Source: Gemmatimonadota bacterium (GTDB lineage Bacteria; Gemmatimonadota; Gemmatimonadetes; JACCXV01; JAHWKZ01). Taken from it: 58,995 nucleotides of DNA. A model generated the notes under the pieces. That model did not search any database and was not told where the DNA came from. It saw only the letters and a program-made list of their open reading frames with translations. Location of the stretch: positions 1 to 58,995 of the forward strand of contig JAHWKZ010000001.1 of NCBI GenBank assembly GCA_019347645.1, read 5' to 3'. This document shows positions 4,940 through 50,972 of this stretch, in pieces (within the stretch, counting starts at the first letter, position 1; every line of letters starts with the position of its first letter). The position numbers and the translations under genes are program-made.

Positions 4940-6003
4940 CGACCCGCCTCCTTCCGACCGGTCACCGAGCGGACGAACGCCTTCAGGTCGTCCAACCGCT
5001 CCCGTGAGACGACCAGCGTCTCGTCGATGGTCCGCACCACGACGACGTCCGAGAGGCCGAGCGCGGAGATGCGTCCCGACTCCGACCACGCGACGAGATC
5101 CGTGCACTCCTCCAGCTCGACGTCACCGACCGCCACGTTGCCCCTCGCATCGAGTTCCATCCAGCGGGCGAGCGCGTCCCAGGAGCCGACATCGTCCCAA
5201 CCCCAGTCGCTGGCGGGAAGGACGGCGGCGCGATCGGTCTGCTGCATGATCCCGTAGTCGATCGAAGTCGACTCGACGGTCGCGTAGAAGCGCTCGAGGG
5301 ACCGTCGCGGACCCTCGTCCCACCCCGTCACGGCGGCCTGGACCGTCTTCCGCATCAGCGGCAGGTGGCGGCCGTACTCCTCGAGGAACACCGAGGCGCG
5401 CCCGCAGAAGAGCCCGCTGTTCCAGTAGTGCCGGCCATCGTTCCAGAGACGACGGACCGTCTCGGCGTCGGGCTTCTCGAGGAAGGCCGCCACCTCGTAC
5501 GCCTCGACCGTCGTCACGTCGAGCGGCTCGCCGCGGCGGACGTAGCCGTAGCCGGTCTCGGGTCGGCTGGGGACGATCCCGAACAGGACGAGGAGGGCGC
5601 GCTCGGCGGCGAGCTGGAAGGCCCCCTGAACGGAGTCACGGAAGGCGTCGACGTCGCCCACGGCGTGATCGGCCGGCAGAGCCAGGAAGACCGCATCCGG
5701 GTCCCGCGCCTCCAGCAGGCCGGCCGCGAGGCCGACCGCGGGCGCGGTATTCTTCCCCTCCGGCTCACCGATCACGTTGCCGCGCGGTACCTCCGGGAGC
5801 TCACGGGCGACCTCGTCGACCAGGGTAGCGTGGGTGAGGACCATCGTCCGCTCCGGGGACACCACCCCGTCGAGCCGGTCCACTGTCTCCCGAAGCAGGG
5901 TGCGATCGGACAGGAGCGGCAGGAGCTGCTTGGGTCGCAGGGGGGTCGAGGCGGGCCAGAACCGCTCGCCCGTTCCGCCGGCGAGGACGACGGCGTAGTT
6001 CAA
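4936..6003 (-). CDS. manC: mannose-1-phosphate guanylyltransferase
   Basis: MNYAVVLAGGTGERFWPASTPLRPKQLLPL N-terminal nucleotidyltransferase signature; 355 aa. Confidence 0.85.
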   Translation of the reverse strand: MNYAVVLAGGTGERFWPASTPLRPKQLLPLLSDRTLLRETVDRLDGVVSPERTMVLTHATLVDEVARELPEVPRGNVIGEPEGKNTAPAVGLAAGLLEARDPDAVFLALPADHAVGDVDAFRDSVQGAFQLAAERALLVLFGIVPSRPETGYGYVRRGEPLDVTTVEAYEVAAFLEKPDAETVRRLWNDGRHYWNSGLFCGRASVFLEEYGRHLPLMRKTVQAAVTGWDEGPRRSLERFYATVESTSIDYGIMQQTDRAAVLPASDWGWDDVGSWDALARWMELDARGNVAVGDVELEECTDLVAWSESGRISALGLSDVVVVRTIDETLVVSRERLDDLKAFVRSVTGRKEAGR

Positions 6004-10664: not shown

Positions 10665-11477
10665 CTACGCCGCCCCCGCGCGGGCGACCTCGACGCCTCC
10701 GATCCTCCCCCCCAGGAACCGCTGCCCCACCCGGAGGAACTGCTCCGGCAGGTCGCTGACCAGGAAGCGGTGCTCCGAGACCGGATCCCCCCGCCGGGCT
10801 AGATCGCGTCGGGCGAGAAGCGCGCCCACCTCCCGGGCGGTCTCCTCCGCCGAATCGATCAGCCGAACGGAGGACCCGAGCGTCTCGCCGATCACCCCCT
10901 TCAGCAGCGGATAGTGGGTGCACCCGAGGATCAGCGCGTCGACGCCGTCGATCCGGAACGGCGCCAGGTACTCCTCGGCCACGAGCCGCGCGGCCGGGTG
11001 GTCGGTCCACCCCTCTTCGGCGAGGGCGACGAACAGGGGGCAGGGCCGTGACACGACCGTCACGTCGGGGGCCAGCGCCGTCAGGGCCTCCCGATAGGCC
11101 CCCGAGCCGATCGTCCCGTGCGTCCCGATCACGCCCACCCGCCGGTTGGTGGTGGCCGCCGCCGCGGCGCGGGCGCCGGGCTCGATCACCCCCACGATCG
11201 GCAGCTCGAACCGGTCGCGGAGGGCCGGGAGCGCGAACGCCGTGGCCGTGTTGCACGCCACCACGATCGCCTTGACGTCGTGCCGGGTGAGAAGCTCGAC
11301 GTTCTCGATCGAGAAGCGTGTTACCGTGTCGCGGGACTTGGGCCCGTAGGGGACCCGTGCGGTATCACCGAAGTAGATCAGGCGTTCGGCCGGCAGCGCC
11401 GCCATGAGCGCGTGCATGACGGTCAGTCCGCCGATGCCGGAGTCGAAAACCCCGATCGACCTCTCGCGATCGCTCAT
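10665..11477 (-). CDS. murI: glutamate racemase
   Basis: IGVFDSGIGGLTVMHAL, YFGDTARVPYGPKS, VVACNTA, LGCTHYP. Confidence 0.92.
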   Translation of the reverse strand: MSDRERSIGVFDSGIGGLTVMHALMAALPAERLIYFGDTARVPYGPKSRDTVTRFSIENVELLTRHDVKAIVVACNTATAFALPALRDRFELPIVGVIEPGARAAAAATTNRRVGVIGTHGTIGSGAYREALTALAPDVTVVSRPCPLFVALAEEGWTDHPAARLVAEEYLAPFRIDGVDALILGCTHYPLLKGVIGETLGSSVRLIDSAEETAREVGALLARRDLARRGDPVSEHRFLVSDLPEQFLRVGQRFLGGRIGGVEVARAGAA

Positions 11478-13695: not shown

Positions 13696-13794
13696 TGGCG
13701 GGAACGTGTGGGAATCGAACCCACCTCGGACGCGGCGCGCGCGCCCGATGACGGTTTTGAAGACCGCAGGGGCCACCAGACCCCATCCGCTCCC
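13696..13794 (-). tRNA. selC: tRNA-Sec (anticodon UCA)
   Basis: Minus strand GGGAGCGGAU-GGGGUC-UGGU-GGCCCC-U-GCGGU-CUUCAAA-ACCGU-(long variable arm UCGGGCGCG..CGCGUCCGA)-GUGGG-UUCGAUU-CCCAC-ACGUUCCC-G-CCA. It has a 6-bp D stem with a 4-nt loop, a UCA anticodon, a long extra arm and an encoded CCA. Confidence 0.85.
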
Positions 13795-27396: not shown

Positions 27397-27741
27397 CTAG
27401 AACAAACCGGGGAGGGGCATTCCCCCCGTCAGCCTCTTCATCTCCTCCGCCGCCATCTCGCCCGCCCGCGTCAGCGCCTCGCTCACCGCGGCCACCACGA
27501 GGTCCTCGAGCATCTCGACGTCCTCGGGATCGACGACCTGCGGGTCGATCGAGATCGATACGAGCTCCTGCCGGCCGTTCACCACCGCGGTCACCATGCC
27601 CCCGCCCGCCGTCGCCTCCACCGTACGGTCGGCGAGCTCGGACTGCATCCGGGACACCTGGCTCTGGATCCGCTGGGCCTGCTTCAGGAGGTTCTGGATG
27701 TTGTTGTTGTTCATCGGCTCCTCATAGGGGTCCATCGTCAT
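27397..27741 (-). CDS. ybaB: YbaB/EbfC nucleoid-associated protein
   Basis: NIQNLLKQAQRIQSQVSRMQSELADRTVEATAGGGMVTAVVNG. The start could be 27741 (ATGA overlap with dnaX) or the MNNNN methionine at 27714. Confidence 0.9.
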   Translation of the reverse strand: MTMDPYEEPMNNNNIQNLLKQAQRIQSQVSRMQSELADRTVEATAGGGMVTAVVNGRQELVSISIDPQVVDPEDVEMLEDLVVAAVSEALTRAGEMAAEEMKRLTGGMPLPGLF

Positions 27742-29426
27742 GAATGGGTCGTCGGCCGCCGCAGGCGAACGACGTTGGCGTCGAACAGCTCGACGACCTG
27801 CTGCAGGAGGGGGTCTCCCTTCAACCTGGCGTCGACGTCCCGCTCGGCGGCCTCACGGGCGCTCGGCCCGCGCGCCGGGCGGGGGTTTCGTTCCTCGGCC
27901 GCCTCCTCGGCCGTTTCCACTTCGATCCGACCGCTCCAGCCCCATCGAGACTCCAGAACCCCGCAGAGGGGTTGGAGGGTCCCCTTGCCGCGCAGCTGCT
28001 CCATCCGAAACTCGGCGTCGGCCGGGAGCGCCAGGACGATCCGCTCCACCGAGCACCCGACCGGTCGCGCGCCGAGCAACGCGGCCGCGACCGTCGGCCG
28101 GACCCGGTGTACCGCGTCGACGACCGACTCCCACGCCCCGGAGAGGCGCTCCAGCGTCAGTGGCCCCTCGGGCCGGCTCGTCGGCCGGGAGGACGCGGCC
28201 CGCGGTGTCGGGCGAGCCGCTTCGGCCGGGATCGACACCCCCTTTCGACCGGCGCCGTCCGGAGCCTTCGCCGGGCCCGCCGCGCCGGCCGCGCCACTAA
28301 CTTTTCCCAGCGCCGCCAGCGCCCGGTCCAGCTCGACCGTCCGGTCCAGGAGCGCCAGCCGCACCAGCAATACTTCGAGCACCAGGCCCTGCTGACTGGA
28401 GCGGCGGAAGGCCCGCTCCTCGTCGGTGGCCAGGGACAGCATCCGCAGCAGGTCCTCGGCACCGAGCTCGCCGGCCAGCTTCCGGTACGTCTCGTGGTAC
28501 CTCTCCGGCACCTCGCTCGTTCCCGCCCCGTCCCCGATGGCGAACAGCAGGCAGTCCCGGAGGTGCTCGAGAAAGCCGGTGTAGAACTCCTCGAGGTCGT
28601 ATCCGGACGCGCGCACCTCGCGGGCGAGCGCCAGCGCGCCGGCCGCGTCGCCGTCGGCGAGGATCGAGGTCAGCTGCAAGTATCGCTCCTCGTCGGGCAT
28701 CCCGATCAGCCGCCGCAGCGTCGCCACGTCGATCGCGTCGCCTCCGAAGGCGACCACCTGGTCGAGCAGGGAGAGGGCGTCCCGCAGCCCGCCGTCGGCC
28801 TTCTTCGCGATCGCGTGCTCGGCGGGCTCCTCGATCTCGAACCCTTCCGCCTCGGCGATCCGCCGGATCCGCTCCCGGATCGCGGGCAGCGGGATCGGCC
28901 GAAAGTCGAACCGCTGGCAGCGCGAGAGGATGGTCGGGAGGATCTTGTGCGGCTCGGTCGTCGCGAGCACGAACACCACGCTCTTCGGCGGCTCCTCCAG
29001 CGTCTTCAGGAACGCGTTGAAGGCGTCCTTGGAGAGCTGGTGGACCTCGTCGACGATGTAGACCTTCCAGAGCCCCTGGGCGGCCGCGTACTTGACCGTC
29101 TCGCGGAGCTCCTTGATGTCGTCGATGCCGCGGTTGGACGCCGCGTCGATCTCGATGACGTCCAGCGAGCGGCCGGCCGCGATCGCCCGACAGTTCTCGC
29201 ACGCGTCGCACGGCTCGCCGGAGATCCCGGTCTCGCAATTCAACGCCTTGGCCAGCAGACGAGCGGTCGTCGTCTTGCCGGTCCCGCGAGGACCGGCGAA
29301 GAGGTACGCCTGCGCGATCCGGCCGCGATCGAGGGCGTTCCGGAGCGTGCGGGTGACGTGGTCCTGGGCGACGACGTCCGCGAAGGTGGCGGGACGGTAT
29401 TTCAGCGCCAGCGGCTGATGGGTCAT
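27738..29426 (-). CDS. dnaX: DNA polymerase III subunit gamma/tau
   Basis: Inner ATG at 29426: MTHQPLALKYRPATFADVVAQDHV..., GPRGTGKTT, CGEPCDACENC, VYIVDEVH. Confidence 0.92.
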   Translation of the reverse strand: MTHQPLALKYRPATFADVVAQDHVTRTLRNALDRGRIAQAYLFAGPRGTGKTTTARLLAKALNCETGISGEPCDACENCRAIAAGRSLDVIEIDAASNRGIDDIKELRETVKYAAAQGLWKVYIVDEVHQLSKDAFNAFLKTLEEPPKSVVFVLATTEPHKILPTILSRCQRFDFRPIPLPAIRERIRRIAEAEGFEIEEPAEHAIAKKADGGLRDALSLLDQVVAFGGDAIDVATLRRLIGMPDEERYLQLTSILADGDAAGALALAREVRASGYDLEEFYTGFLEHLRDCLLFAIGDGAGTSEVPERYHETYRKLAGELGAEDLLRMLSLATDEERAFRRSSQQGLVLEVLLVRLALLDRTVELDRALAALGKVSGAAGAAGPAKAPDGAGRKGVSIPAEAARPTPRAASSRPTSRPEGPLTLERLSGAWESVVDAVHRVRPTVAAALLGARPVGCSVERIVLALPADAEFRMEQLRGKGTLQPLCGVLESRWGWSGRIEVETAEEAAEERNPRPARGPSAREAAERDVDARLKGDPLLQQVVELFDANVVRLRRPTTHS

Positions 29427-29474
29427 AGGGATCGAGACGGCTCGGGATCGGGGAAACGCGACACCATGGCGAAA

Positions 29475-29570
29475 GCCCCAGGCGAGCCGCAGCGACCCGA
29501 CTCTCCACGTACCGCTGCTACCTTCCGGTCCTGACGGGGTTGATGGCGTCGAGCCCTGGGGGCCTGGGGC
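29475..29570 (-). ncRNA. ffs: signal recognition particle RNA (4.5S type)
   Basis: The minus strand contains GUCAGGACCGGAAGGUAGCAGC (E. coli 4.5S: GUCAGGUCCGGAAGGAAGCAGC), closed by GCCCCAGG...CCUGGGGC. It sits in the classic position upstream of dnaX. Confidence 0.85.
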
Positions 29571-29643
29571 ATGCAAGAAACTACCCCCGGGCCGGGGGGC
29601 ACGTCAACGGGCCGCTCGGCCGGCGGCCGCCCGGCGGGTCCGC

Positions 29644-29814
29644 TCAGCCCCGCCGGGAGTCCCCCTCCGCCCGCGGCGCCGGAAGCCGATCGAAGAACAG
29701 CTCCGGCTCGTCCGGCTCTTCCGGATCCTCGGCCGCGACGGGCGACGCCGGGCCGCAAGAGGTGCAGAGCGCCGCGACGACGAGGAAGCCGACCGCGAAT
29801 CGTCCGAGCCTCAT
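29644..29814 (-). CDS. small lipoprotein (56 aa)
   Basis: MRLGRFAVGFLVVAALCTSCGP signal plus lipobox. ATGA overlap with the upstream stop. Confidence 0.5.
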   Translation of the reverse strand: MRLGRFAVGFLVVAALCTSCGPASPVAAEDPEEPDEPELFFDRLPAPRAEGDSRRG

Positions 29815-30089
29815 CGGTCCCCCGCGTCCGGCGACGATCGGCTCCCGTCTCCGCGGGAAGTCGCGGGAGGAGCCCCCTCCGACTCGTCGAACCGGAGCCA
29901 GAGGCGCAGGCCCACCAGTCCCACCGCCATGAGCATCAACCGGGTGCCCTCCTGGTGGAAGAGCTCGGCCGTTCCGTGGACGATGACCACCATGCCGTAG
30001 GCGGCCAGCGCGCCGTTCACCACCCACCACAGGACCCTCTTCGCCTTGCGGGTCTCGTCCTCCAGGGTCGTATCCAACAGATCGGTCAC
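29811..30089 (-). CDS. small two-helix membrane protein (92 aa)
   Basis: GTG at 30089 preceded by GAGGAGGG and overlapping the receiver-gene stop (GTGA). VLWWVVNGALAAYGMVVIV and LMLMAVGLVGLRLWL hydrophobic helices. Confidence 0.55.
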   Translation of the reverse strand: MTDLLDTTLEDETRKAKRVLWWVVNGALAAYGMVVIVHGTAELFHQEGTRLMLMAVGLVGLRLWLRFDESEGAPPATSRGDGSRSSPDAGDR

Positions 30090-30604
30090 CGTCCCTCCTC
30101 TTCGATTCGACCGGCTCGCACCGCATCGCCCCCGCACGCTGGTCTCTTCCCCGTCCTCGATGGAGCTCCGCGTGGTCTTCGTGCCGATCGGCGACCCTCT
30201 CGCCGGGTCAGCCGCCGCCGGATCCCCGTCAGGGTCTCTTCCAGGCGGAGACGCGACACCGGCTTCTGCAGAAGGTCGTAGACGCCCGCCCGCGTGGCCG
30301 CGGCCTGGACCTCGCGCGACCTCCAGGAGGTCGCGAGCACGGAACCGGGCGAAGCCGACTCCACGATCCGTGTCGCCAATCGGCATCCGGCCGCGGAATC
30401 CTCGTCGAAGTCGATCACCACCAGGTCGGGGCGGAACCGCCGGATGCCGTCCAGATGCCGCTCGGTCGCCGTCCCCGGACGGATGCTCATTTCGTACTGG
30501 ATGTTGAACCCCTGGCGCGACGCCACCTCGTTCACGATCGCTTGCAGCTCCCCGTCCGCGGAGAGGATCATCGCCGTCCACGATTCCGCTTCGGCCTCGG
30601 CCAT
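30086..30604 (-). CDS. single-domain response regulator (CheY-like receiver with Arg-rich tail)
   Basis: AMILSADGE..., PDLVVIDFDED (acceptor Asp), VLATSW, LLQKP are receiver landmarks. Confidence 0.7.
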   Translation of the reverse strand: MAEAEAESWTAMILSADGELQAIVNEVASRQGFNIQYEMSIRPGTATERHLDGIRRFRPDLVVIDFDEDSAAGCRLATRIVESASPGSVLATSWRSREVQAAATRAGVYDLLQKPVSRLRLEETLTGIRRRLTRREGRRSARRPRGAPSRTGKRPACGGDAVRAGRIEEEGR

Positions 30605-30629
30605 CTCTATTCTCGCGACCTCACCCTCG

Positions 30630-31050
30630 ACTCAATAAGGTCATCCACCCTAGCGGAAGACCGGATCTCCTGTCAAGGCGTCGCCTTCCACAGATGCGGA
30701 ATCGGAATTCCACGAACGTGGAGACCCGGATCCGAATAGGAGAGTCGTTTTCATGATATTCAAGCTACATAACCTATTGCGAAATGGTAACCTGCGGGCT
30801 CTTAACTAGATTCTGGGTACGTGGTCTGGAGCTAGGTCATGCCTATAACGAAAGATTACAAGCTAGTGATCCAAAAAAATATCAAATTATCCGGTGGACG
30901 CCTCCCGTCATCGCGGCTCTAATCCGGCCTTTCTGTAAGTCCTCTGCCCGATCTACTGCGAATCGTGAATCCATGTTCGGGGGGAGATCGAGATTGTACT
31001 ATTTCGTTATGCTTTACAGAGGGGACATTTCTTTTGGAATGACGAGGGAA
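30630..31050. other. anomalously AT-rich non-coding spacer between the histidine kinase and the receiver gene
   Basis: My hand count over 30741-30900 gives 66 G+C of 160 (about 41%), against roughly 70% in the flanks. No convincing ORF on either strand. Contains a cluster of palindromes at 30704-30734. Confidence 0.7.
30647..30676 (-). promoter_or_regulatory. candidate sigma70-type promoter of the receiver operon
   Basis: Minus strand TTGACA (30676-30671), 18-nt spacer, TAGGGT (30652-30647), about 45 nt upstream of ATG 30604. The -10 is weak. Confidence 0.2.
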
Positions 31051-31109
31051 CCGCACGCGTGTGCCGAAGGAACGCGGGGGCGGGGCCATCACGCCTGACG
31101 ATCCCCGGC

Positions 31110-34100
31110 TCACCCGCCGTTCGTTCGCAGCCTCAAATGGATGGCGGTCCCCGCTGGACGGCGACGCTCCCACTCCACCGATCCGCCCCAGGTCTCGACG
31201 GTCCGCTTCACGATGGCGAGGCCCAGCCCCGTCCCCCGCGTCTTGGTCGAGAAGGACGGCTCGAACAGCCGATCGGTGGCGTCCGCCGACAGACCGGTTC
31301 CGTCGTCGACCACGGAGACACGCGCCTCCTCGGCGTCCCCGGCGAAGTCGATCTCGACCGCCACGCGACCCTTTCGGGCGGCGGTTCCGAGCACCGCCTC
31401 GCGGGCGTTCTGCAGCAGGTTCACCAGCACCCGCCGGAAGCCCTCGGCCTCCCCCAGGACCGGTCGGGCCTCGCCGGTGACCTCGAGCGCGTAGTCGATC
31501 TTCTCGTCGCCCGGCCGGAACAGCTCGATGGCGTCCCGGGCCACCGCCACGGCGTCGAACGGCTCGACCACGGTCGGCTGGGGAACGCCGAACCGGGCGA
31601 AGGAGCCGGCGATCCGCTCCAGGCGGTCGATCTCGGAGAGCACGAGATCGAGGTTGCGATGGAAGAGCCGCTCGAAGTCGGGTGCGCGGTCCTCGACGGT
31701 CTTCTCGAGGTGCTGCAGCGAGAGCTTCATCGGCGTGAGCGGGTTCTTGATCTCGTGGGCGACCTGACGCGCCATCTCCCCCCAAGCGAGCACCCGCTGC
31801 GACTGTACGTTCGCGGTGATGTCCTCGAAGGCGACGACCAGCCCGCGCTCCTCGCCGGCGCCGTCGACGAGGCCGGTGCAGACGACGTGGTAGTGGCGCT
31901 CCGCCCCCTCCCTGCGTAGGACCAGGTCGCGATCGGCGCGCGCTCCACGGACCGACGCCTCGGCGACGGCGCGCCAGAAGGGGGCGGCGGGGCGCTCCCT
32001 GCGGGCGAGCTCCTCCACCGATCGGCCGAGCACGTCCTCGGCCTCTTCGTCGAGCAGGTCGGCCGCTCGGTCGTTGAGCAGGCGCACCCCTCCGCGGGCG
32101 TCGAGAGCGACGACACCGGCCCCCACCGATGCGAGGATCGCCTGGACCCGCGACTTCTCCCGCTCGAGCGCCCGCTGGCTGGCGTCGAGGCGCCCGGCCA
32201 TGGCGTTGAACGCCCGCTGGACGCGGCCGAACTCGTCCCGCCGGGCGGGCGTCGACAACCGATAGGAGAGCCGGCCGGCGGCGATATGCCGGGTGCCCTC
32301 CTCGAGCGCCGACAGCGGCCGGGACATGAATCGGGCCAGCCCCCATCCCACGACGAGCAGGAATCCGATGGAGAACGCCGACAGCAGGAAGACTCCCTCG
32401 CCGAGGCGCTGGAGGTCGACCCGGACCCGATCCTCGCGGATCAGCAGCGGCGTCGCCAGGGCGTAGCCGGGCGGCACGTCGGGCTCGGAGAGCGCCCGGT
32501 AGGCGACCAGGAACGAGCGCTCGCCGAGCGTCGTCTCGTCGAAGGCGATCGGCCTTCGCTCGGCGAAGAGTGTCGCGTACACCGACCCGTCGATCCGGTC
32601 CGCGAAGACCCGGGAGGCGAAGATCTCCGGGCGGCTGGAGGCTCTCGTGTGGCCGCGCCAGTAGAGGACGAGGTCCTGCTGGAGGACGTCTCCGATCTCG
32701 CGAAGGCGCGCCGAGAGCTCACGGTCGGAGGCGATCGCGAGCGCCCGGTCGCGGGCCAGCAGCCGACTGGCTGCGTTCAACGCCTCGCTGGCCGCCGATC
32801 GTGTAGCCTCCTCGAGCTCGAGACGCGTGGTCCGGTACCCCAGGACGGCGTAGAGGGTGAGCGGGAGCGCCGCCACGGCGAGGAAGGCGAGGACGAGCTG
32901 GGCACGGAAGGAGCGGAGCGGGTTCTCCGCCGCGATCCGCGCGCGCCACGCGGTCCTGGCCCGCGGATCCCCCGCCCGCTCGAGCAAGCCCAGCGCCAGC
33001 GCCAGCGCGGAGGCGGCCAGGACGAACACCGCCGTTCCACGGGGCCCGGGGAGAAGGGGATCGAGCGGCATGGCGAGCTGGAGGGTGCCGACCTCGCCCT
33101 CCGCGTCGAAGGCCCGGACGCGAGTCAGCAAGGTTCGCGGCGGCGGCTCCTCTTCGGGGCCCAGTGTGGTGTACCCCGGTACGTCCGGCTCGATGCCGCC
33201 GCCGGCCAGGAGGTCGGTCAGCACGAAACCGGTCCCCTGCTCGCGCAGCTCCACGGAGCCCGTCGTCATCGCCACCGCCGTTCCGTTCCGCCGGCCCGCG
33301 GCGTCGAGGACGGGGACGACCGCCCACCGGACGGCGCCGGTGCCCTGCGATCCTCGGACGGGGATCTGGGCCGGCTCGAGTGCGGCCACGTAGCGCCGAG
33401 CGCGGTCGGTCAGGTCCTCGGGGGCGAGGGAGAACTGGCTCACGACCCGCCCCTCGGCGTCGAACAGAAACAGCCCGGTGGCGAAGTCGAGCTCGCGCAG
33501 CGGACTGCGGCTCCACAGGGCGAGCGCCGCGTCGCGGTTCTCCTCGGCGATCGCCTCGCTCACCGCCGGCTCGTTCGCGAGGAACTCCACGGTCCGGGTC
33601 ATCGTGTAGTCGAGCCACTGGCTGGACGCCTCGCCGATCCGCTGCGCCCGCTCGACGAGGAGCTCGTGCGCCGCCTGGACGCGCGCGAAGGCCGCCAGGG
33701 GAAGCGTGGCCAGGGCCCCCACGGCCGTCGCCACGATCGCGAGACGCACCAGCCGCACCCGCCGCGCCCCGCGCGGCCGGCCGACGGCGAGGGTGGCCCA
33801 GGCGCCGGCCACGATCGCGATCGCCGACGGCGCGACCACCTCGACCGGATGTCCCGCCATCGATGCTTCGGGGAGACGCCAAGCGGCGATGCCCACCGCC
33901 GCCCCCACCACCAGGGCGGCACCCCCTCCCCACGCGGGCCCGTCCGGCGTCCCCGCCCACCGCAGCACCCCCGCGAGGGCCACCACGACGGCCGCGCCGA
34001 ACAGGGCGAAGCCCAGCAGGACCAGGAGAAGCGGGGGAGCGAACAGGAGCGTGGGACTGAAGAACGCCGCGGGGCTCATGCCCTCGAGGGCCCCTTCGAG

Positions 34101-35405
34101 CGACGGGACCGCCAGTCGCCCGAGGCCCCACGTCACCGCGAGCGCCACGACGACCGTCAGGGTCGCCACCACCGGGCGGCGCCGACCCTCCCGCCGCGTG
34201 ACGAGGAGCGACCAGGCGGTCCAGGCCATGATCGCCGTCGCCGCCGCCGTCACCAGGAGGTGCCCCGCCGATCGGCCGGCCGGTCCGAAGGCCGGGGCCG
34301 CGAAACCCAGCGGGCTGAACCACTCTTCCGGCAGGAGACGAGCCGGGAGCCGGCTCTCGACCAAGAGGGCCCAGACGAGAGCGACGAGACCCAGCCGGAC
34401 GAGGAGGGCGGCGATCGCCTCGCCCCTTCCGCCGGCCCCGATCCGAGGTACGACCCGCGCCGTCCGTCGCGACGCTTCCCAGCCGACACCCACCGCCCAG
34501 GCCAGCGGCCACAGCAACAGCAGCGCCATCGCCCGCTCGCCCTGCCGCCGGCGCTCGGCCACGTACCGCTGGAGGAGGAAGCCTTCGCTGGCCACGCCCG
34601 CCACCACCTCCCGCGAACCCCCGACCACCGACGATCGCTCGGACGGGGCGAGGGTGTCTCCGCCGGGGAGGAGCCGGAACGCCAGATGCCGCTCCCGGGA
34701 GAGTCGGGCCAGGATCAGGTCCGGCTCGAGCGCCTCCCGGCGAAGCGGGGACTCGACCGCCCAGAGGTCCTTGACGACGACACGGAAGGTGTCGCGGCCG
34801 ATGGTCTGTGGCTTCCCCACGTATGCGATCACCCATCCGGTGGGGTTGCGCACCACCCCGCCGGCGAGCGCCGCCGCGATCGAGTCCGGCGGCAATCGCT
34901 CTCCGCGAGGATCGCCCCACCAGGCCCGCAGCGCGCCCTCAGAGTCGTAGAGCTCCAGGCCGATCCCCTCGGACAACCGTTCGGGCGTGGCTCGCCCCAG
35001 GGACACGAACCATTCGCTCTCCTCGTCCGGGAGCGGGAGCGAGCCTCCCGATGCCAGCCGCCGGGCCGTGGTCTCGGCCAGCTCCCGATCCTCGGCGAGT
35101 CGCGCGCTCAGCGCGCGTGCCACCCCGGCTCGCGCCTCGGATTCCAACCGGGCCGCCGCCCCTGGCCCCGCCATCGTCACCCGCCACGTGTCGAACGCCG
35201 TCCACGCCCAGATCCCGAGGTAGGCGATCAGGAGCCCGTAGGCGATCCTCGCGCCCCACCGCTCGGGGCGCCCCGCCACGGCGCCCCAGACCACAAGCCC
35301 GATGGCCGCCGCCACGGCCGCGACGGGCGCCGGGGCGGGGACGGCGCCGAATGACACCGCGGCGAGGCCGGTGGCGAGGAAGAGCGCGGCCGCGGCCCGT
35401 TTCAC
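31110..35405 (-). CDS. giant multi-pass sensor histidine kinase (NtrY-like HAMP-PAS-HisKA-HATPase C-terminus)
   Basis: 1431 aa; GTG start at 35405 (GTGA overlap with the exbD stop). Many hydrophobic helices in the first ~950 aa, then a HAMP-like region, AHEIKNPLTPM H-box, NLLQNAREA, DDGTGL and GTGLGLAIV. Confidence 0.85.
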   Translation of the reverse strand: MKRAAAALFLATGLAAVSFGAVPAPAPVAAVAAAIGLVVWGAVAGRPERWGARIAYGLLIAYLGIWAWTAFDTWRVTMAGPGAAARLESEARAGVARALSARLAEDRELAETTARRLASGGSLPLPDEESEWFVSLGRATPERLSEGIGLELYDSEGALRAWWGDPRGERLPPDSIAAALAGGVVRNPTGWVIAYVGKPQTIGRDTFRVVVKDLWAVESPLRREALEPDLILARLSRERHLAFRLLPGGDTLAPSERSSVVGGSREVVAGVASEGFLLQRYVAERRRQGERAMALLLLWPLAWAVGVGWEASRRTARVVPRIGAGGRGEAIAALLVRLGLVALVWALLVESRLPARLLPEEWFSPLGFAAPAFGPAGRSAGHLLVTAAATAIMAWTAWSLLVTRREGRRRPVVATLTVVVALAVTWGLGRLAVPSLEGALEGMSPAAFFSPTLLFAPPLLLVLLGFALFGAAVVVALAGVLRWAGTPDGPAWGGGAALVVGAAVGIAAWRLPEASMAGHPVEVVAPSAIAIVAGAWATLAVGRPRGARRVRLVRLAIVATAVGALATLPLAAFARVQAAHELLVERAQRIGEASSQWLDYTMTRTVEFLANEPAVSEAIAEENRDAALALWSRSPLRELDFATGLFLFDAEGRVVSQFSLAPEDLTDRARRYVAALEPAQIPVRGSQGTGAVRWAVVPVLDAAGRRNGTAVAMTTGSVELREQGTGFVLTDLLAGGGIEPDVPGYTTLGPEEEPPPRTLLTRVRAFDAEGEVGTLQLAMPLDPLLPGPRGTAVFVLAASALALALGLLERAGDPRARTAWRARIAAENPLRSFRAQLVLAFLAVAALPLTLYAVLGYRTTRLELEEATRSAASEALNAASRLLARDRALAIASDRELSARLREIGDVLQQDLVLYWRGHTRASSRPEIFASRVFADRIDGSVYATLFAERRPIAFDETTLGERSFLVAYRALSEPDVPPGYALATPLLIREDRVRVDLQRLGEGVFLLSAFSIGFLLVVGWGLARFMSRPLSALEEGTRHIAAGRLSYRLSTPARRDEFGRVQRAFNAMAGRLDASQRALEREKSRVQAILASVGAGVVALDARGGVRLLNDRAADLLDEEAEDVLGRSVEELARRERPAAPFWRAVAEASVRGARADRDLVLRREGAERHYHVVCTGLVDGAGEERGLVVAFEDITANVQSQRVLAWGEMARQVAHEIKNPLTPMKLSLQHLEKTVEDRAPDFERLFHRNLDLVLSEIDRLERIAGSFARFGVPQPTVVEPFDAVAVARDAIELFRPGDEKIDYALEVTGEARPVLGEAEGFRRVLVNLLQNAREAVLGTAARKGRVAVEIDFAGDAEEARVSVVDDGTGLSADATDRLFEPSFSTKTRGTGLGLAIVKRTVETWGGSVEWERRRPAGTAIHLRLRTNGG

Positions 35406-49517: not shown

Positions 49518-49930
49518 CGTTTCCTCGTTCGGAGGTCGTGATGTCTGCCGGTGACCGCGGGAAGAAGGAGCATCGGCCGTACCGAACCGGCCGGGCCCGA
49601 TCGAGAGGTCGGGCCGGGTCGAAGAGGCGATTTGGAGCCGCGAGCGGGCGGGCGGGAAGAGGCGGCGAGATCGCATCGGAAGGACGTTGCCGCGACGGAA
49701 AGGGTCTTCCATCGGCGAGGAACTTCGGTACCGATCCGGCGTCGGCCGACGGGAGCGGACGCGGGGGCATGGCTCCGTCGAAGATCCTGCGTCCTTCCGT
49801 GCAACCGGCTCGGAGCACTGTACTTAGGAGACTTTTGGACGGTATTCTGCCGATCCGGCTTGCATTCTGCCGGCTTCGGGGTGCCACGGGAGGGTCCAAG
49901 GGGCGCGTCGGGCTGCGCGGCGGCGGCCGC

Positions 49931-50929
49931 TCAGGCCTCGATCTCGTACCGTTTGACCTTGTTGAGGAGGGACTTGTAGCTGATCTCGAGGTCGGCGGCT
50001 GCCCGCTTCTTGTTCCACTTCGCCGCCTGGAGCGCGCGTTCGATCGCCTGCGACTCGATCCGGGCGACTACCCGGGCCACCATCTGCTTGAGGGGCAGGC
50101 CGGAGTCGAGGATCTCCTCATCGGTGGAGCCACCCGGTCCTTTCTTGCTGCCCAGCTCCTCGCGGATCGTTTCCTCGTCTTCGATCACCAGGAAGCGCCG
50201 GATCACCCGCTCGAGCTCGCGGACGTTGCCCGGCCAGCGGTACCCCTGCAGGAACTTGACGAACCCGGTCCGCAGGACGCGGATCTTCGAACCGTAGAAC
50301 GTGCCGTACTTCTGAAGGATGTGGTTGGCGAGCAGCGGGACGTCCTCCGGACGGTCGCGCAGCGGCGGGACCTCGATCCGAACGGCTCCACCGACCGCCC
50401 CCCACTCCTTCTCGAGCTTGTCGAGCGCGGAGTTTCCTAGCGACGGCTGCTCGCAGGAGAGGACGAACCGCGGCTCCGAGCCGTCCGCGGCGCGCTGACG
50501 CTTCCACTCGCGCAGCCGCTCGCTCAGCTCTGCGGGAAGGGATTCGATGCCGTGGATGTAGAGGGTGCCCCCGCCGACCGCCTCGAGCTTGCCGCCGTCA
50601 CCGCCGTCGAACAGCTCCCTTTCGATCGCGGCGCTCGGGATCGCGTAGCAGTTGAGCGAGGCGAGGGGACGCGAGGCCCGACTCGAGAGATCGTGGATCC
50701 CGCGGGCGAGGATCTCCTTGCCGACGCCGCGCTCGCCGCACAGCACCACGGTCAGCGAAGTATCGGCCACCTGGCCGAGGCGCTCGCGCGCGGCGATCAC
50801 GCGCTCGTCGACGCTCAGCAGGAAGTTCGGATGACCGCCGATCTCCCAGTAGGCGGACGCCGGGGGGTCGGGGCTACCGTCCGTTCGCGCGGGGGATGCG
50901 GGCTCGGCAGTCACGGCGCGGCTAGACAA
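49931..50929 (-). CDS. sigma54-activator-like AAA+/Fis-HTH regulator lacking a GAFTGA loop and the Walker B acidic pair
   Basis: VVLCGERGVGKE Walker A, VPPLRDRPEDVPLLANHIL, PGNVRELERV, and a C-terminal IERALQAAKWNKKRAAADLEISYKSLLNKVKRY HTH. There is no receiver domain. TTG start at 50929, or GTG at 50914. Confidence 0.8.
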   Translation of the reverse strand: MSSRAVTAEPASPARTDGSPDPPASAYWEIGGHPNFLLSVDERVIAARERLGQVADTSLTVVLCGERGVGKEILARGIHDLSSRASRPLASLNCYAIPSAAIERELFDGGDGGKLEAVGGGTLYIHGIESLPAELSERLREWKRQRAADGSEPRFVLSCEQPSLGNSALDKLEKEWGAVGGAVRIEVPPLRDRPEDVPLLANHILQKYGTFYGSKIRVLRTGFVKFLQGYRWPGNVRELERVIRRFLVIEDEETIREELGSKKGPGGSTDEEILDSGLPLKQMVARVVARIESQAIERALQAAKWNKKRAAADLEISYKSLLNKVKRYEIEA

Positions 50930-50972
50930 TGCAATCCCCGTACCACCTGAACTCCCGGGGGCGATCAGCGGA

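Follow-up and report, generated by a model that had tools for sequence, protein, structure and literature searches.

The low-GC island downstream of a large histidine kinase gene on this Gemmatimonadota contig is probably (at roughly 55%, in our estimate) a composite control region between two operons, not a gene. The window, meaning the whole stretch of DNA analysed, is 58,995 bp long. Our verdict is that the island is a regulatory spacer of an ordinary kind, though an extreme example, and nothing in it pointed to a concealed gene for an RNA or a protein. By itself the result is modest: even a conspicuous anomaly in composition can be free of hidden genes, and this one would resolve into a transcript end, a promoter, operators and anonymous filler at a junction prone to rearrangement. 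The by-products are predictions for an uncultured lineage of Gemmatimonadetes: a promoter consensus (TTGACR-N17/18-TANNNT) tied to the 5' end of the SRP RNA, a candidate operator of the pilus regulon (TTCCRC-N4-GYGGAA) common to the flp and kinase-downstream promoters, and a TadZ-like receiver protein, an orphan, that seems to be part of this regulon.

Composition and genomic setting of the island

A direct count gave 66 G+C in 30741-30900 (41.3%), exactly the number reported in an earlier reading of this DNA made from its letters (hereafter, the sequence-only reading). The value of about 40% GC that it gave for the island fits the central 160-200 nt and not 30630-31050, which has 48.2%; the full kinase-receiver spacer (30605-31109) has 52.1%, and the contig 70.8%. 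The drop is as abrupt as it had claimed. With 160-nt windows, 30599-31093 was the sole stretch below 55% GC in the 58,995 bp (minimum 39.4%), and the lowest 100-nt window in the island has 40% GC, the contig's next-lowest having 54%. The AT-rich core (30736-31050, 315 nt) has 45% GC and dips to 33-35% at 30840-30879 and 31000-31039, and the trinucleotide signature of the island is the most deviant in the contig. GC-window statistics, proposed for the whole genome, were run on the contig and on 1.15 Mb of other high-GC loci, and showed the island to be rare: in those loci, ~10 real islands lie 20 GC points or more under the local mean, ~6 of them non-coding, and the present one is the longest among the non-coding islands. 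It is a true compositional outlier.

The flanking genes and the core are as follows.

31110..35405, minus strand: histidine kinase, HAMP-PAS-HisKA-HATPase, 1431 aa (Pfam domains)
30736..31050, no strand: AT-rich core, lineage-specific, 45% GC, in which no gene, structured RNA or repeat family is detectable
30086..30604, minus strand: stand-alone receiver-like protein, 172 aa (Pfam Response_reg, 31 bits)
30089..29811, minus strand: small membrane protein, 92 aa, GTG start, GGAGG ribosome-binding site
29814..29644, minus strand: 56-aa ORF, ATG start, signal-peptide/lipobox-like N-terminus

The earlier placement of the island between the kinase and the receiver gene needs a correction, in that both genes are on the minus strand. 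The kinase, whose stop codon borders the island and whose full-length orthologs share 58-63% identity, is the last gene of an 18-kb tad/flp pilus and TonB-ExbB-ExbD operon (upstream tad genes by tblastn and Pfam). The receiver is the first gene of a three-gene mini-operon, in which the two small ORFs 3' of it overlap and span 29644..30089 (minus strand), based on a frame switch in the GC3 signal; the genes of this operon have a native GC3 of 0.80-0.97. The receiver aligned to the contig's own CpaE (27% identity over 145 aa, E=5e-15) and also matched the CpaE of two relatives (L087 and L086), and by these alignments it is a paralog of the N-terminal atypical receiver domain of TadZ/CpaE. No close relative of the receiver protein was detected among the 5.8e9 proteins searched.

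Because the receiver has no relatives, orthologous kinase-receiver spacers are absent from public data, and kinase orthologs (nine loci) were used for comparison, the receiver being too isolated as an anchor. Nearly all nine loci have a different gene content 3' of the kinase. Between the kinase and ffs, relatives have no cargo, a P450 gene, or flp-tadE-tad genes; in L001 a different gene again precedes ffs, and L081 and L082 have convergent genes after the kinase, with no ffs-dnaX seen within the locus. When synteny was followed via dnaX, the SRP RNA alone was conserved at the DNA level, and the contig of the closest relative, on which an unrelated ORF is found, stops 551 nt short of ffs. In L084 the place of the island is taken by another AT-rich one (36% GC), unrelated to it and bearing the flp1 promoter. 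The relatives fit a transcript end and a promoter into 90-260 nt, which bears out the remark that the present island is longer than these functions require.

Probable transcript end, predicted promoter and putative operators

The elements assigned to the transcript end and to the control of the receiver and flp promoters are listed below.

31051..31109, minus strand: GC-rich (76%) tail directly 3' of the kinase stop, hairpin-capable, without a U-tract
30962..31052, minus strand: candidate Rho-loading (rut-like) zone, C-rich, G-poor and unusually unstructured
30709..30722, no strand: putative operator site A, TCCACGAACGTGGA, a perfect 14-bp palindrome
30686..30701, no strand: putative operator site B, TTCCACAGATGCGGAA, of TTCC-N8-GGAA form
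30676..30647, minus strand: predicted sigma-70-type promoter of the receiver operon, TTGACA-N18-TAGGGT (pattern match, placement)
30644..30657, no strand: putative operator site C, TCCACCCTAGCGGA, overlapping the -10 hexamer
49707..49722, no strand: the second and only other TTCC-N8-GGAA palindrome of the contig, upstream of the flp pilin promoter
49931-50929, minus strand: sigma-54 activator with an HTH_8 domain, without a receiver domain (Pfam)

The 18-kb transcript of the tad/flp, TonB-ExbBD and kinase genes would end within the island, in agreement with the sequence-only reading. No intrinsic terminator (hairpin plus U-tract) was found on either strand in 30400-31300, and the hairpin of the GC-rich tail, with fold z-scores of -0.4 and 0.0, is by its sequence not a canonical intrinsic terminator. 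The adjoining rut-like zone has a C/G ratio of 2.0-2.27 in 78-nt windows (contig 99th percentile, 1.9), moderate in absolute terms with 25-30 C vs 11-17 G per 78 nt, and the minus strand of 30960-31059 has a folding z of +2.2. The rest of the AT-rich core is without a C>G bias, and an excess of C over G just 3' of the kinase stop was also found in the relatives L084, L086, L087 and L088. In its sequence the zone thus looks like a Rho-dependent terminator, with at least ~80 nt of untranslated RNA 3' of the stop that is weakly structured and richer in C than in G, and it is a candidate for Rho loading. Since there is no intrinsic terminator and the GC-rich tail is followed by ~90 nt of C-rich, G-poor and unstructured RNA, we infer that termination is probably Rho-dependent.

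The promoter of the receiver operon, also expected within the island by that reading, is well supported as TTGACA-N18-TAGGGT, with a predicted start near 30640 and a 5' UTR of ~35 nt. Its -10 hexamer has three of the six consensus bases and was missed by a generic promoter scan. The pattern TTGACR-N17/18-TANNNT occurs twice in the contig (expected 0.11; none of 100 shuffles reached two), and the second copy, the promoter of the SRP RNA, stops 9 nt short of that RNA's Rfam-anchored 5' end. In the relatives, it marks the ffs promoters and the kinase-downstream promoters.

Palindromic sites cluster around this promoter. TCCRC-N4-GYGGA has three matches in 59 kb, all within 79 bp (30644-30722), with centre-to-centre spacings, from the coordinates, of 22 bp between A and B and 43 bp between B and C; site B ends 10 nt upstream of the -35 hexamer. 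The TTCC-N8-GGAA form has two copies in the contig and two in the nine kinase-ortholog loci (L086 7926 and L087 10384), every one in a tad promoter region, at a background rate of 0.56 per 100 kb. Across 191 kb, six of the 10 matches of a relaxed palindrome fall in kinase-downstream spacers, ~4 being expected overall. A 27-nt block with site B aligned to L088 7184-7211, above every shuffle, and the right half of site A is kept in the same spacer; palindromes are conserved at equivalent positions in the kinase-downstream spacers of relatives, with this conservation resting on four relatives at ~60% protein identity. The sites have dyad symmetry, cluster more than chance would allow and recur at promoters that are orthologous or co-regulated, which suggests that they are operators bound by a regulator. 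A small ORF across the block (VEFRFRICG in the window vs VEVRFRDRG in L088) was considered and rejected: the similarity of the two frames stops after six residues, and the identical codons in that block point to a DNA motif and not a coding motif. Six metagenomic matches to the 27-nt block were likewise set aside as chance, being inside unrelated CDS that encode VE(V/F)RFR.

The contig's other TTCC-N8-GGAA palindrome is ~130-155 nt upstream of a sigma-54-like promoter, GGTACGgccgATGCT (49583..49569), that precedes the flp pilin genes; convincing sigma-54-like sites in the contig are those at 50945 and 49584. With TTGACA-N18-TAGGGT driving the receiver mini-operon, a dimeric helix-turn-helix regulator of the pilus regulon would bind the three palindromes on the same helix face (22 + 43 bp), two just upstream of the -35 and one over the -10, and the position of the latter suggests repression or tight switching. 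The palindrome common to the flp and receiver promoters would tie the receiver operon to pilus regulation. Candidates for the binding protein, whose identity we propose tentatively, are the receiver-less sigma-54 activator (HTH_8) adjoining flp and the partner regulator of the kinase. The regulator landing pad suggested by the sequence-only reading finds support only in the receiver-proximal ~100 bp (30644-30722), where three phased palindromes bracket the promoter.

The AT-rich core and rival explanations

Beyond the rut-like zone, ~220 further nt of AT-rich DNA without a detectable signal would be lineage-specific filler at a rearranged junction, presumably without a function of its own, although it may passively insulate the next promoter from read-through. 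Other spacers of the contig never fall below 54% GC, so a core of 45% GC must have arrived recently or be under selection for a high AT content, and the word filler does not say which.

The island is non-coding, as first described. GC is flat across the codon positions of its 104-aa ORF (hereafter, ORF104; 0.50/0.53/0.50) and of the longest minus-strand ORF (30650..30763; 0.47/0.53/0.58), which has 37 aa and not the 35 aa first given, compared with a GC3 of 0.80-0.94 in real genes here; no island ORF and none of the six frames matched Pfam, PHROG or NCBIfam. ORF104 has no word-sharing homolog, and its six HMMER hits in an exhaustive search were rejected as weak matches summed over internally repeated target proteins, different parts of the query matching unrelated proteins. 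At gathering score, Rfam recovered only tRNA-Sec and SRP RNA from the whole contig, and at E<=10 it returned for 30400-31300 a single noise-level snoRNA match (18.7 bits vs a gathering score of 50), so the Rfam scan that had been suggested placed no RNA family in the island. Excess folding relative to dinucleotide shuffles was lacking over the 505 nt (z = +0.44 on the minus and +0.26 on the plus strand), in local 100-nt windows of the core (z from -0.9 to +2.2) and in the repeat-bounded 176 nt (z = -0.15 and -1.19), the palindromic operator zone being the sole exception in the island. With no conservation in 1.19 Mb of related loci either, the earlier idea of a structured or small RNA is unsupported.

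Searches for related DNA were equally negative. Using blastn, nothing similar to the island was found in plasmids, in phages, in the rest of the contig or in 89 related loci (1.19 Mb), and nothing similar to the core was found in viral contigs or metagenomes. The core has no counterpart in the nine orthologous kinase loci, which leaves the proposed alignment of kinase-receiver spacers without material, and tblastn revealed no remnant of flp, tadE or another tad gene in it. No convincing att-like direct repeats surround the receiver islet. For the idea of an origin of replication, no good DnaA box was seen by eye near the island, and the genes on both sides run the same way. An imperfect inverted repeat is present in the core:

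30845-30864 and 30991-31010, no strand: arms of an imperfect 20-nt inverted repeat (17/20) that bounds 166 bp

The main competitor of a control region is a core that is a non-functional scar: when the receiver mini-operon came to lie between the kinase and the gene for SRP RNA, a piece of foreign or rearranged DNA, or a decayed relic, would have stayed behind. It overlaps in part with our preferred reading and differs by denying the core a role in termination or insulation. We consider it possible, if on balance unlikely. The scar of foreign DNA raised by the sequence-only reading gains from the hypervariable junction, where the kinase-to-ffs cargo differs in nearly every relative, from the lack of a counterpart to the core, from its deviant composition and trinucleotide signature, and from the marginal inverted repeat; it loses from the absence of similarity to phages, plasmids, viral contigs or metagenome contigs, of a protein remnant in six frames, and of flanking att-like or target-site repeats. 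In addition, the native GC3 of the adjoining receiver operon indicates that the core was not simply co-acquired with those genes recently. A more specific version, in which the 166-bp segment (30845-31010) is a MITE inserted into a shorter ancestral spacer, scarcely deserves credence: the 17/20 inverted repeat and the much shorter spacers of relatives speak for it, but the repeat reaches only p ~0.057 vs shuffles, is not flanked by a target-site duplication, and has no second copy in the contig or the 1.19 Mb of related loci (the paired-arm pattern had zero matches in metagenomes, and a repeat arm zero in viral contigs), and the AT-rich zone runs ~110 nt past one arm.

Other explanations give the core an active role. 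A small RNA or small protein (ORF104, or a 27-aa ORF at 30839) would find space there, a small RNA need not be strongly structured, and a GGAG located 7 nt before its ATG at 30839 gives the 27-aa ORF (30839-30922, plus strand) a plausible ribosome-binding site. The Rfam, folding, conservation, codon-position and homology results all argue against such a gene, as does the lack of any promoter-like, terminator-like or sigma-54-like site within the core, and we regard it as very improbable. In the island as a whole, the best sigma-54 score was 7/12 against TGGCACG-N4-TTGCW, reached by two sites, neither on the minus strand between the operators and the receiver start. Lsr2, MvaT, H-NS and MucR-type proteins are known to target AT-rich tracts in GC-rich genomes (PMC8476142, PMC6584129, PMC9410896). 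The core is AT-rich relative to its genome, at 25 GC points below it, and sits directly upstream of a regulated promoter, so a nucleoid-associated or silencer-type protein with a preference for AT could land there and silence or insulate the receiver promoter. This is quite doubtful, however, given a short tract that has no foreign gene inside to silence and a single A/T tract of at least 5 nt, without phasing. To our knowledge, moreover, no xenogeneic silencer or AT-sensing nucleoid protein has been described for Gemmatimonadota. Broader, and still improbable, is a core whose AT content selection maintains, either as a platform that proteins bind for insulation or silencing or as a regulatory RNA without structure, and that couples the end of the pilus/kinase transcript to a switch-like receiver promoter; if true, it would point to an AT-sensing nucleoid protein in Gemmatimonadota.

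Comparison with known systems

The composite control region that we favour has partial likenesses elsewhere. At glnAp1 of enteric bacteria, NtrC sites overlap a sigma-70 promoter. Likewise, several dyad sites here are beside the -35 and over the -10 or start of a sigma-70-type promoter, and the same type of site is also found at a distance upstream of a sigma-54 promoter (49707-49722, flp). Unlike in the NtrC system, the half-site here is TTCCRC, which bears no relation to the NtrC site, the island has no downstream sigma-54 promoter, repression is suggested by site position only, and for the binding protein there are candidates. The transcript end resembles rut sites at operon ends in having untranslated, C-rich, G-poor and weakly structured RNA after the last stop, without a hairpin plus U-tract, but differs from typical Rho terminators in its moderate C/G bias, limited to ~90 of the 315 AT-rich nt and known here from sequence.

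The sharp AT excess at a variable junction of a GC-rich genome is shared with targets of H-NS, Lsr2, MvaT, Rok and MucR (PMC8476142, PMC6584129, PMC9410896), whereas islands under xenogeneic silencing are unlike this one of only ~0.3-0.4 kb with no foreign gene inside. Closest in setting is the AT-rich spacer of L084 (10354-10562, flp promoter; local GC minimum 36%), which directly follows the orthologous kinase and has a promoter of the same TTGACR-N17/18-TANNNT type and related TTCCAY/TTCCRC dyads. The two sequences are not alignable, the cargo in the window is a TadZ-like receiver operon and not a pilin, and the AT-rich part of the window is upstream of the operators and ~200 nt longer. Finally, the receiver aligns with the N-terminal domain of the CpaE proteins of the contig and of relatives; unlike TadZ/CpaE, it is a stand-alone protein of 172 aa without the ParA/MinD ATPase domain and with no close homolog in public data.

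Composition and gene neighborhood of the low-GC island

The complete contig (58,995 bp, Gemmatimonadetes MAG) has a GC content of 70.8%, and the low-GC non-coding island that the sequence-only reading had noticed between the kinase and receiver genes was confirmed by a G+C recount and by window scans. The hand count of 66 G+C in 30741-30900 is exact, and 30630-31050 as a whole has 48% GC. In 160-nt windows the contig drops under 55% GC only at 30599-31093 (minimum 39%), and in 100-nt windows the island minimum is 40%, the next-lowest place being 54%. The island also has the contig's most deviant trinucleotide signature. Across 1.15 Mb of other high-GC loci, about 10 real islands fall 20 points or more under the local mean, two further apparent ones being runs of N that were not counted; about six are non-coding, and the window island is the longest among the non-coding ones. 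Given an outlier in its own contig and about 10 comparable islands per 1.15 Mb, the anomaly can be taken as real; it is uncommon, with roughly one such island per 100-200 kb, but not unique. At locus L017, apparent 21-25% GC at 5379-5704 and 10988-11296 is an artefact of 100-N masked runs.

Features of the island and its neighbors, in the direction of transcription; both neighboring genes are on the minus strand
35405..31110 (-), histidine kinase, HAMP-PAS-HisKA-HATPase by domain matches, closing a long co-directional cluster
31109-31051, island part 1, GC-rich tail
31052-30962, part 2, candidate rut-like stretch
30960-30740, part 3, ~220 nt of featureless AT-rich DNA
30722-30644, part 4, candidate operator/promoter module
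30709-30722 (A), 30687-30700 (B), 30644-30657 (C), TCCRC-N4-GYGGA sites from a pattern scan
30676..30647 (-), predicted promoter TTGACA-N18-TAGGGT, between sites B and C
part 5, 5' UTR of about 35 nt
30604..30086 (-), "receiver", weak Response_reg match (31 bits)
29644-30089 (-), two small overlapping ORFs after the receiver, joined via GTGA and ATGA overlaps
29578-29607 (-), predicted SRP RNA promoter TTGACG-N18-TAGTTT, ending 9 nt ahead of the Rfam-defined RNA 5' end
29569..29473 (-), bacterial small SRP RNA (ffs), Rfam match of 55 bits

The upstream cluster begins with two flp pilins (~49.45-49.10 kb) and continues with prepilin peptidase, TadE, RcpC, secretin, Tad, CpaE/TadZ, the T2SSE ATPase, T2SSF proteins, TonB-ExbB-ExbD and the kinase. 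The ExbD stop and the kinase start share 4 nt (35402-35405), as in orthologs, so translation of the kinase is coupled to the TonB-ExbB-ExbD module within the tad pilus operon, an unusual combination. The receiver has no close relative found among 5.8 billion proteins. It matches the contig's own CpaE (~43.4-44.7 kb; 27% identity over 145 aa, E=5e-15) and the CpaE of two kinase-ortholog loci (L087 and L086), and retains the Asp of the 'VVID' strand and the 'KP' motif, with SAD replacing the DD pair. Judged by these matches, it is a stand-alone paralog of the CpaE/TadZ N-terminal atypical receiver domain. Both small ORFs are predicted to be translationally coupled to it; the first encodes a 92-aa membrane protein with two hydrophobic helices (GC3 about 0.93-0.97), and the second 56 aa with a signal-peptide/lipobox-like start (MRLGRFAVGFLVVAALCTSC). 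The SRP RNA and then dnaX come after them. A mechanical 612-aa dnaX ORF (27738..29576) runs across the SRP RNA, so the true dnaX start must lie below 29473. Elsewhere in the contig, a tRNA-Sec (13696-13794, minus strand, anticodon TCA; Rfam 74 bits, ARAGORN agreeing) indicates that the organism uses selenocysteine.

Directly upstream of the flp pilins is a sigma-54 activator (49931-50929, minus strand; AAA+ plus HTH_8) with no receiver or sensor domain of any kind. Two sigma-54-like cores GGTACG-N4-WTGCW were found on the minus strand: one (50930-50945) abuts the annotated activator start and the other (49569-49583) lies ~55 nt ahead of the first flp start codon. The receiver-less activator, the orphan receiver and the large kinase together suggest a split or unusual signaling arrangement.

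Gene turnover at the junction in relatives

The receiver being without homologs, the kinase was chosen as the anchor, and nine orthologs at 58-63% identity (L081-L089) were compared with their flanks. Gene content after the kinase is different in nearly all of the nine loci.

Gene content after the kinase in related loci
L085, SRP RNA and dnaX straight after the kinase
L083, P450 gene, then ffs-dnaX
L084, flp-tadE-tad-flp-flp-peptidase, then dnaX
L087, flp-like small gene with TadE, RcpC, Tad, CpaE
L086, TadE, RcpC, Tad, CpaE, with no called pilin
L088, flp-like small gene, then contig end
L081 and L082, unrelated convergent genes

In L085 the ffs promoter begins right at the stop codon of the kinase. 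In L001, the closest relative by dnaX (70% identity), a different ORF again lies upstream of ffs, in 1-551, and at least five distinct gene contents occur between kinase and ffs-dnaX among ten related genomes. This marks the stretch from kinase to ffs as a hot spot for gene turnover. For the AT-rich core (30736-31050) no relative has a counterpart, local alignments being no better than shuffles and blastn and nhmmer blank. At this junction a soil Gemmatimonadetes contig (L084, 10354-10562) has an AT-rich island of its own (minimum 36% GC), unrelated to that of the window; it carries the flp1 promoter TTGACG-N17-TACGAT, upstream of which are a perfect palindrome, AATTCCAT-N5-ATGGAATT, and more TTCCAT half-sites.

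Transcript end, promoter and candidate operators

The sequence-only reading held that the island must contain the end of the long upstream transcript and the receiver-operon promoter, and both were located, the transcript end as a candidate. No intrinsic terminator is present in the island: the GC-rich hairpin after the kinase stop has no U-tract and a stability that does not exceed that of shuffles. The next ~90 nt of RNA (31052-30962) have a C/G ratio of 2.0-2.27, over the contig's 99th percentile, and are unusually unstructured (z = +2.2). In the four relatives whose downstream promoter is co-directional, C also exceeds G just past the kinase stop. This stretch may be a Rho-loading (rut-like) site.

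The predicted receiver-operon promoter is well supported, because its pattern is rare, shared with the SRP RNA promoter and recurrent in relatives. The contig has exactly two copies of TTGACR-N17/18-TANNNT, against 0.11 expected, and none of 100 shuffles has as many; the other copy is the SRP RNA promoter, and in relatives the pattern marks ffs promoters and kinase-downstream flp promoters. The island was also searched for a sigma-54 promoter and rejected as one, with no sigma-54-type core found.

Site C overlaps the promoter -10 and site B abuts the -35. All three copies of TCCRC-N4-GYGGA in the contig fall inside 79 bp (1.09 expected contig-wide), spaced 22 and 43 bp centre-to-centre, about two and four helical turns. 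A slightly relaxed pattern, scanned over 191 kb (window, kinase loci and L001), places 6 of 10 matches in the ~1.4 kb of kinase-downstream spacers, about four being expected overall. The sole alignable block of the island, 30685-30734, is part of this palindrome cluster and beats all shuffles against the kinase-downstream spacers of L088, L087 and L084b. The stricter TTCC-N8-GGAA occurs only at site B and at 49707-49722 (TTCCATCGGCGAGGAA), the latter about 130-155 nt upstream of the sigma-54-like promoter (GGTACGgccgATGCT) before the flp pilins, a typical upstream-activator distance; among the nine kinase loci it is confined to the kinase-to-flp spacers of L086 and L087 (background 0.56 per 100 kb). 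The suggested regulator landing pad stands as a candidate, a palindrome cluster at a promoter. The candidate pilus-regulon operator, the promoter consensus and the orphan TadZ-like receiver are reusable predictions.

Nature of the AT-rich core

A structured or small RNA gene, another proposed explanation, is not supported. The suggested Rfam scan was run and no family matched even at E<=10, the lone hit being an 18.7-bit snoRNA model; the island belongs to no Rfam family. Folding of the 505-nt spacer does not beat shuffles (z = +0.44 and +0.26 on the two strands), 100-nt windows sliding over the core give z from -0.9 to +2.2, and the single modest signal (30635-30734, z about -2.2 on both strands) is the DNA palindrome cluster. 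No coding signal was seen either: the 104-aa ORF at 30784..31098 has flat codon-position GC (0.50/0.53/0.50; GC3 of real genes 0.80-0.94) and no words in common with any database protein, and no island ORF or six-frame translation matches Pfam, PHROGs or NCBIfam. Six HMMER hits to this ORF from an exhaustive search were rejected, each summing many ~20-30-bit matches to internally repeated proteins, with separate query parts matching unrelated proteins. The sole island ORF with a plausible ribosome-binding site (GGAG 7 nt ahead of ATG) is a 27-aa ORF at 30839-30922 (+), MPITKDYKLVIQKNIKLSGGRLPSSRL, with no homolog or family match. A MITE was also rejected: the 20-nt inverted repeat 30845-30864/30991-31010 (17/20) reaches marginal significance (p of about 0.057) and lacks a target-site duplication, and no second copy turned up in the contig, in related loci, in metagenomes or among viral contigs. 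No similarity of the island to phages or plasmids was found.

Since relatives fit termination, operator and promoter functions within 90-260 nt, about 200-300 nt of the AT-rich DNA in the window are extra and lineage-specific. Other contig spacers have at least 54% GC and the adjoining receiver-operon genes have native GC3, so the core would be either the scar of a fairly recent insertion or rearrangement, or DNA kept AT-rich for a hidden reason such as insulation or nucleoid-protein binding. The original interpretation stands in part: the promoter, the candidate transcript end and the candidate regulator pad are retained, an RNA gene finds no support, and a scar is possible.

Overall, the island is a new example of a type of feature that is already known, and its interest is modest. 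Its arrangement would work as where dyad sites lie across a sigma-70 promoter and sites of that type act from a distance on a sigma-54 promoter elsewhere, for which NtrC at glnAp1/glnAp2 is the textbook case. The C-rich unstructured stretch past the last stop codon would fit the type of Rho-dependent operon ends. Silencer-bound AT-rich islands occur in GC-rich genomes (PMC8476142, PMC6584129, PMC9410896), and the likeness of the window island to these is one of composition only.
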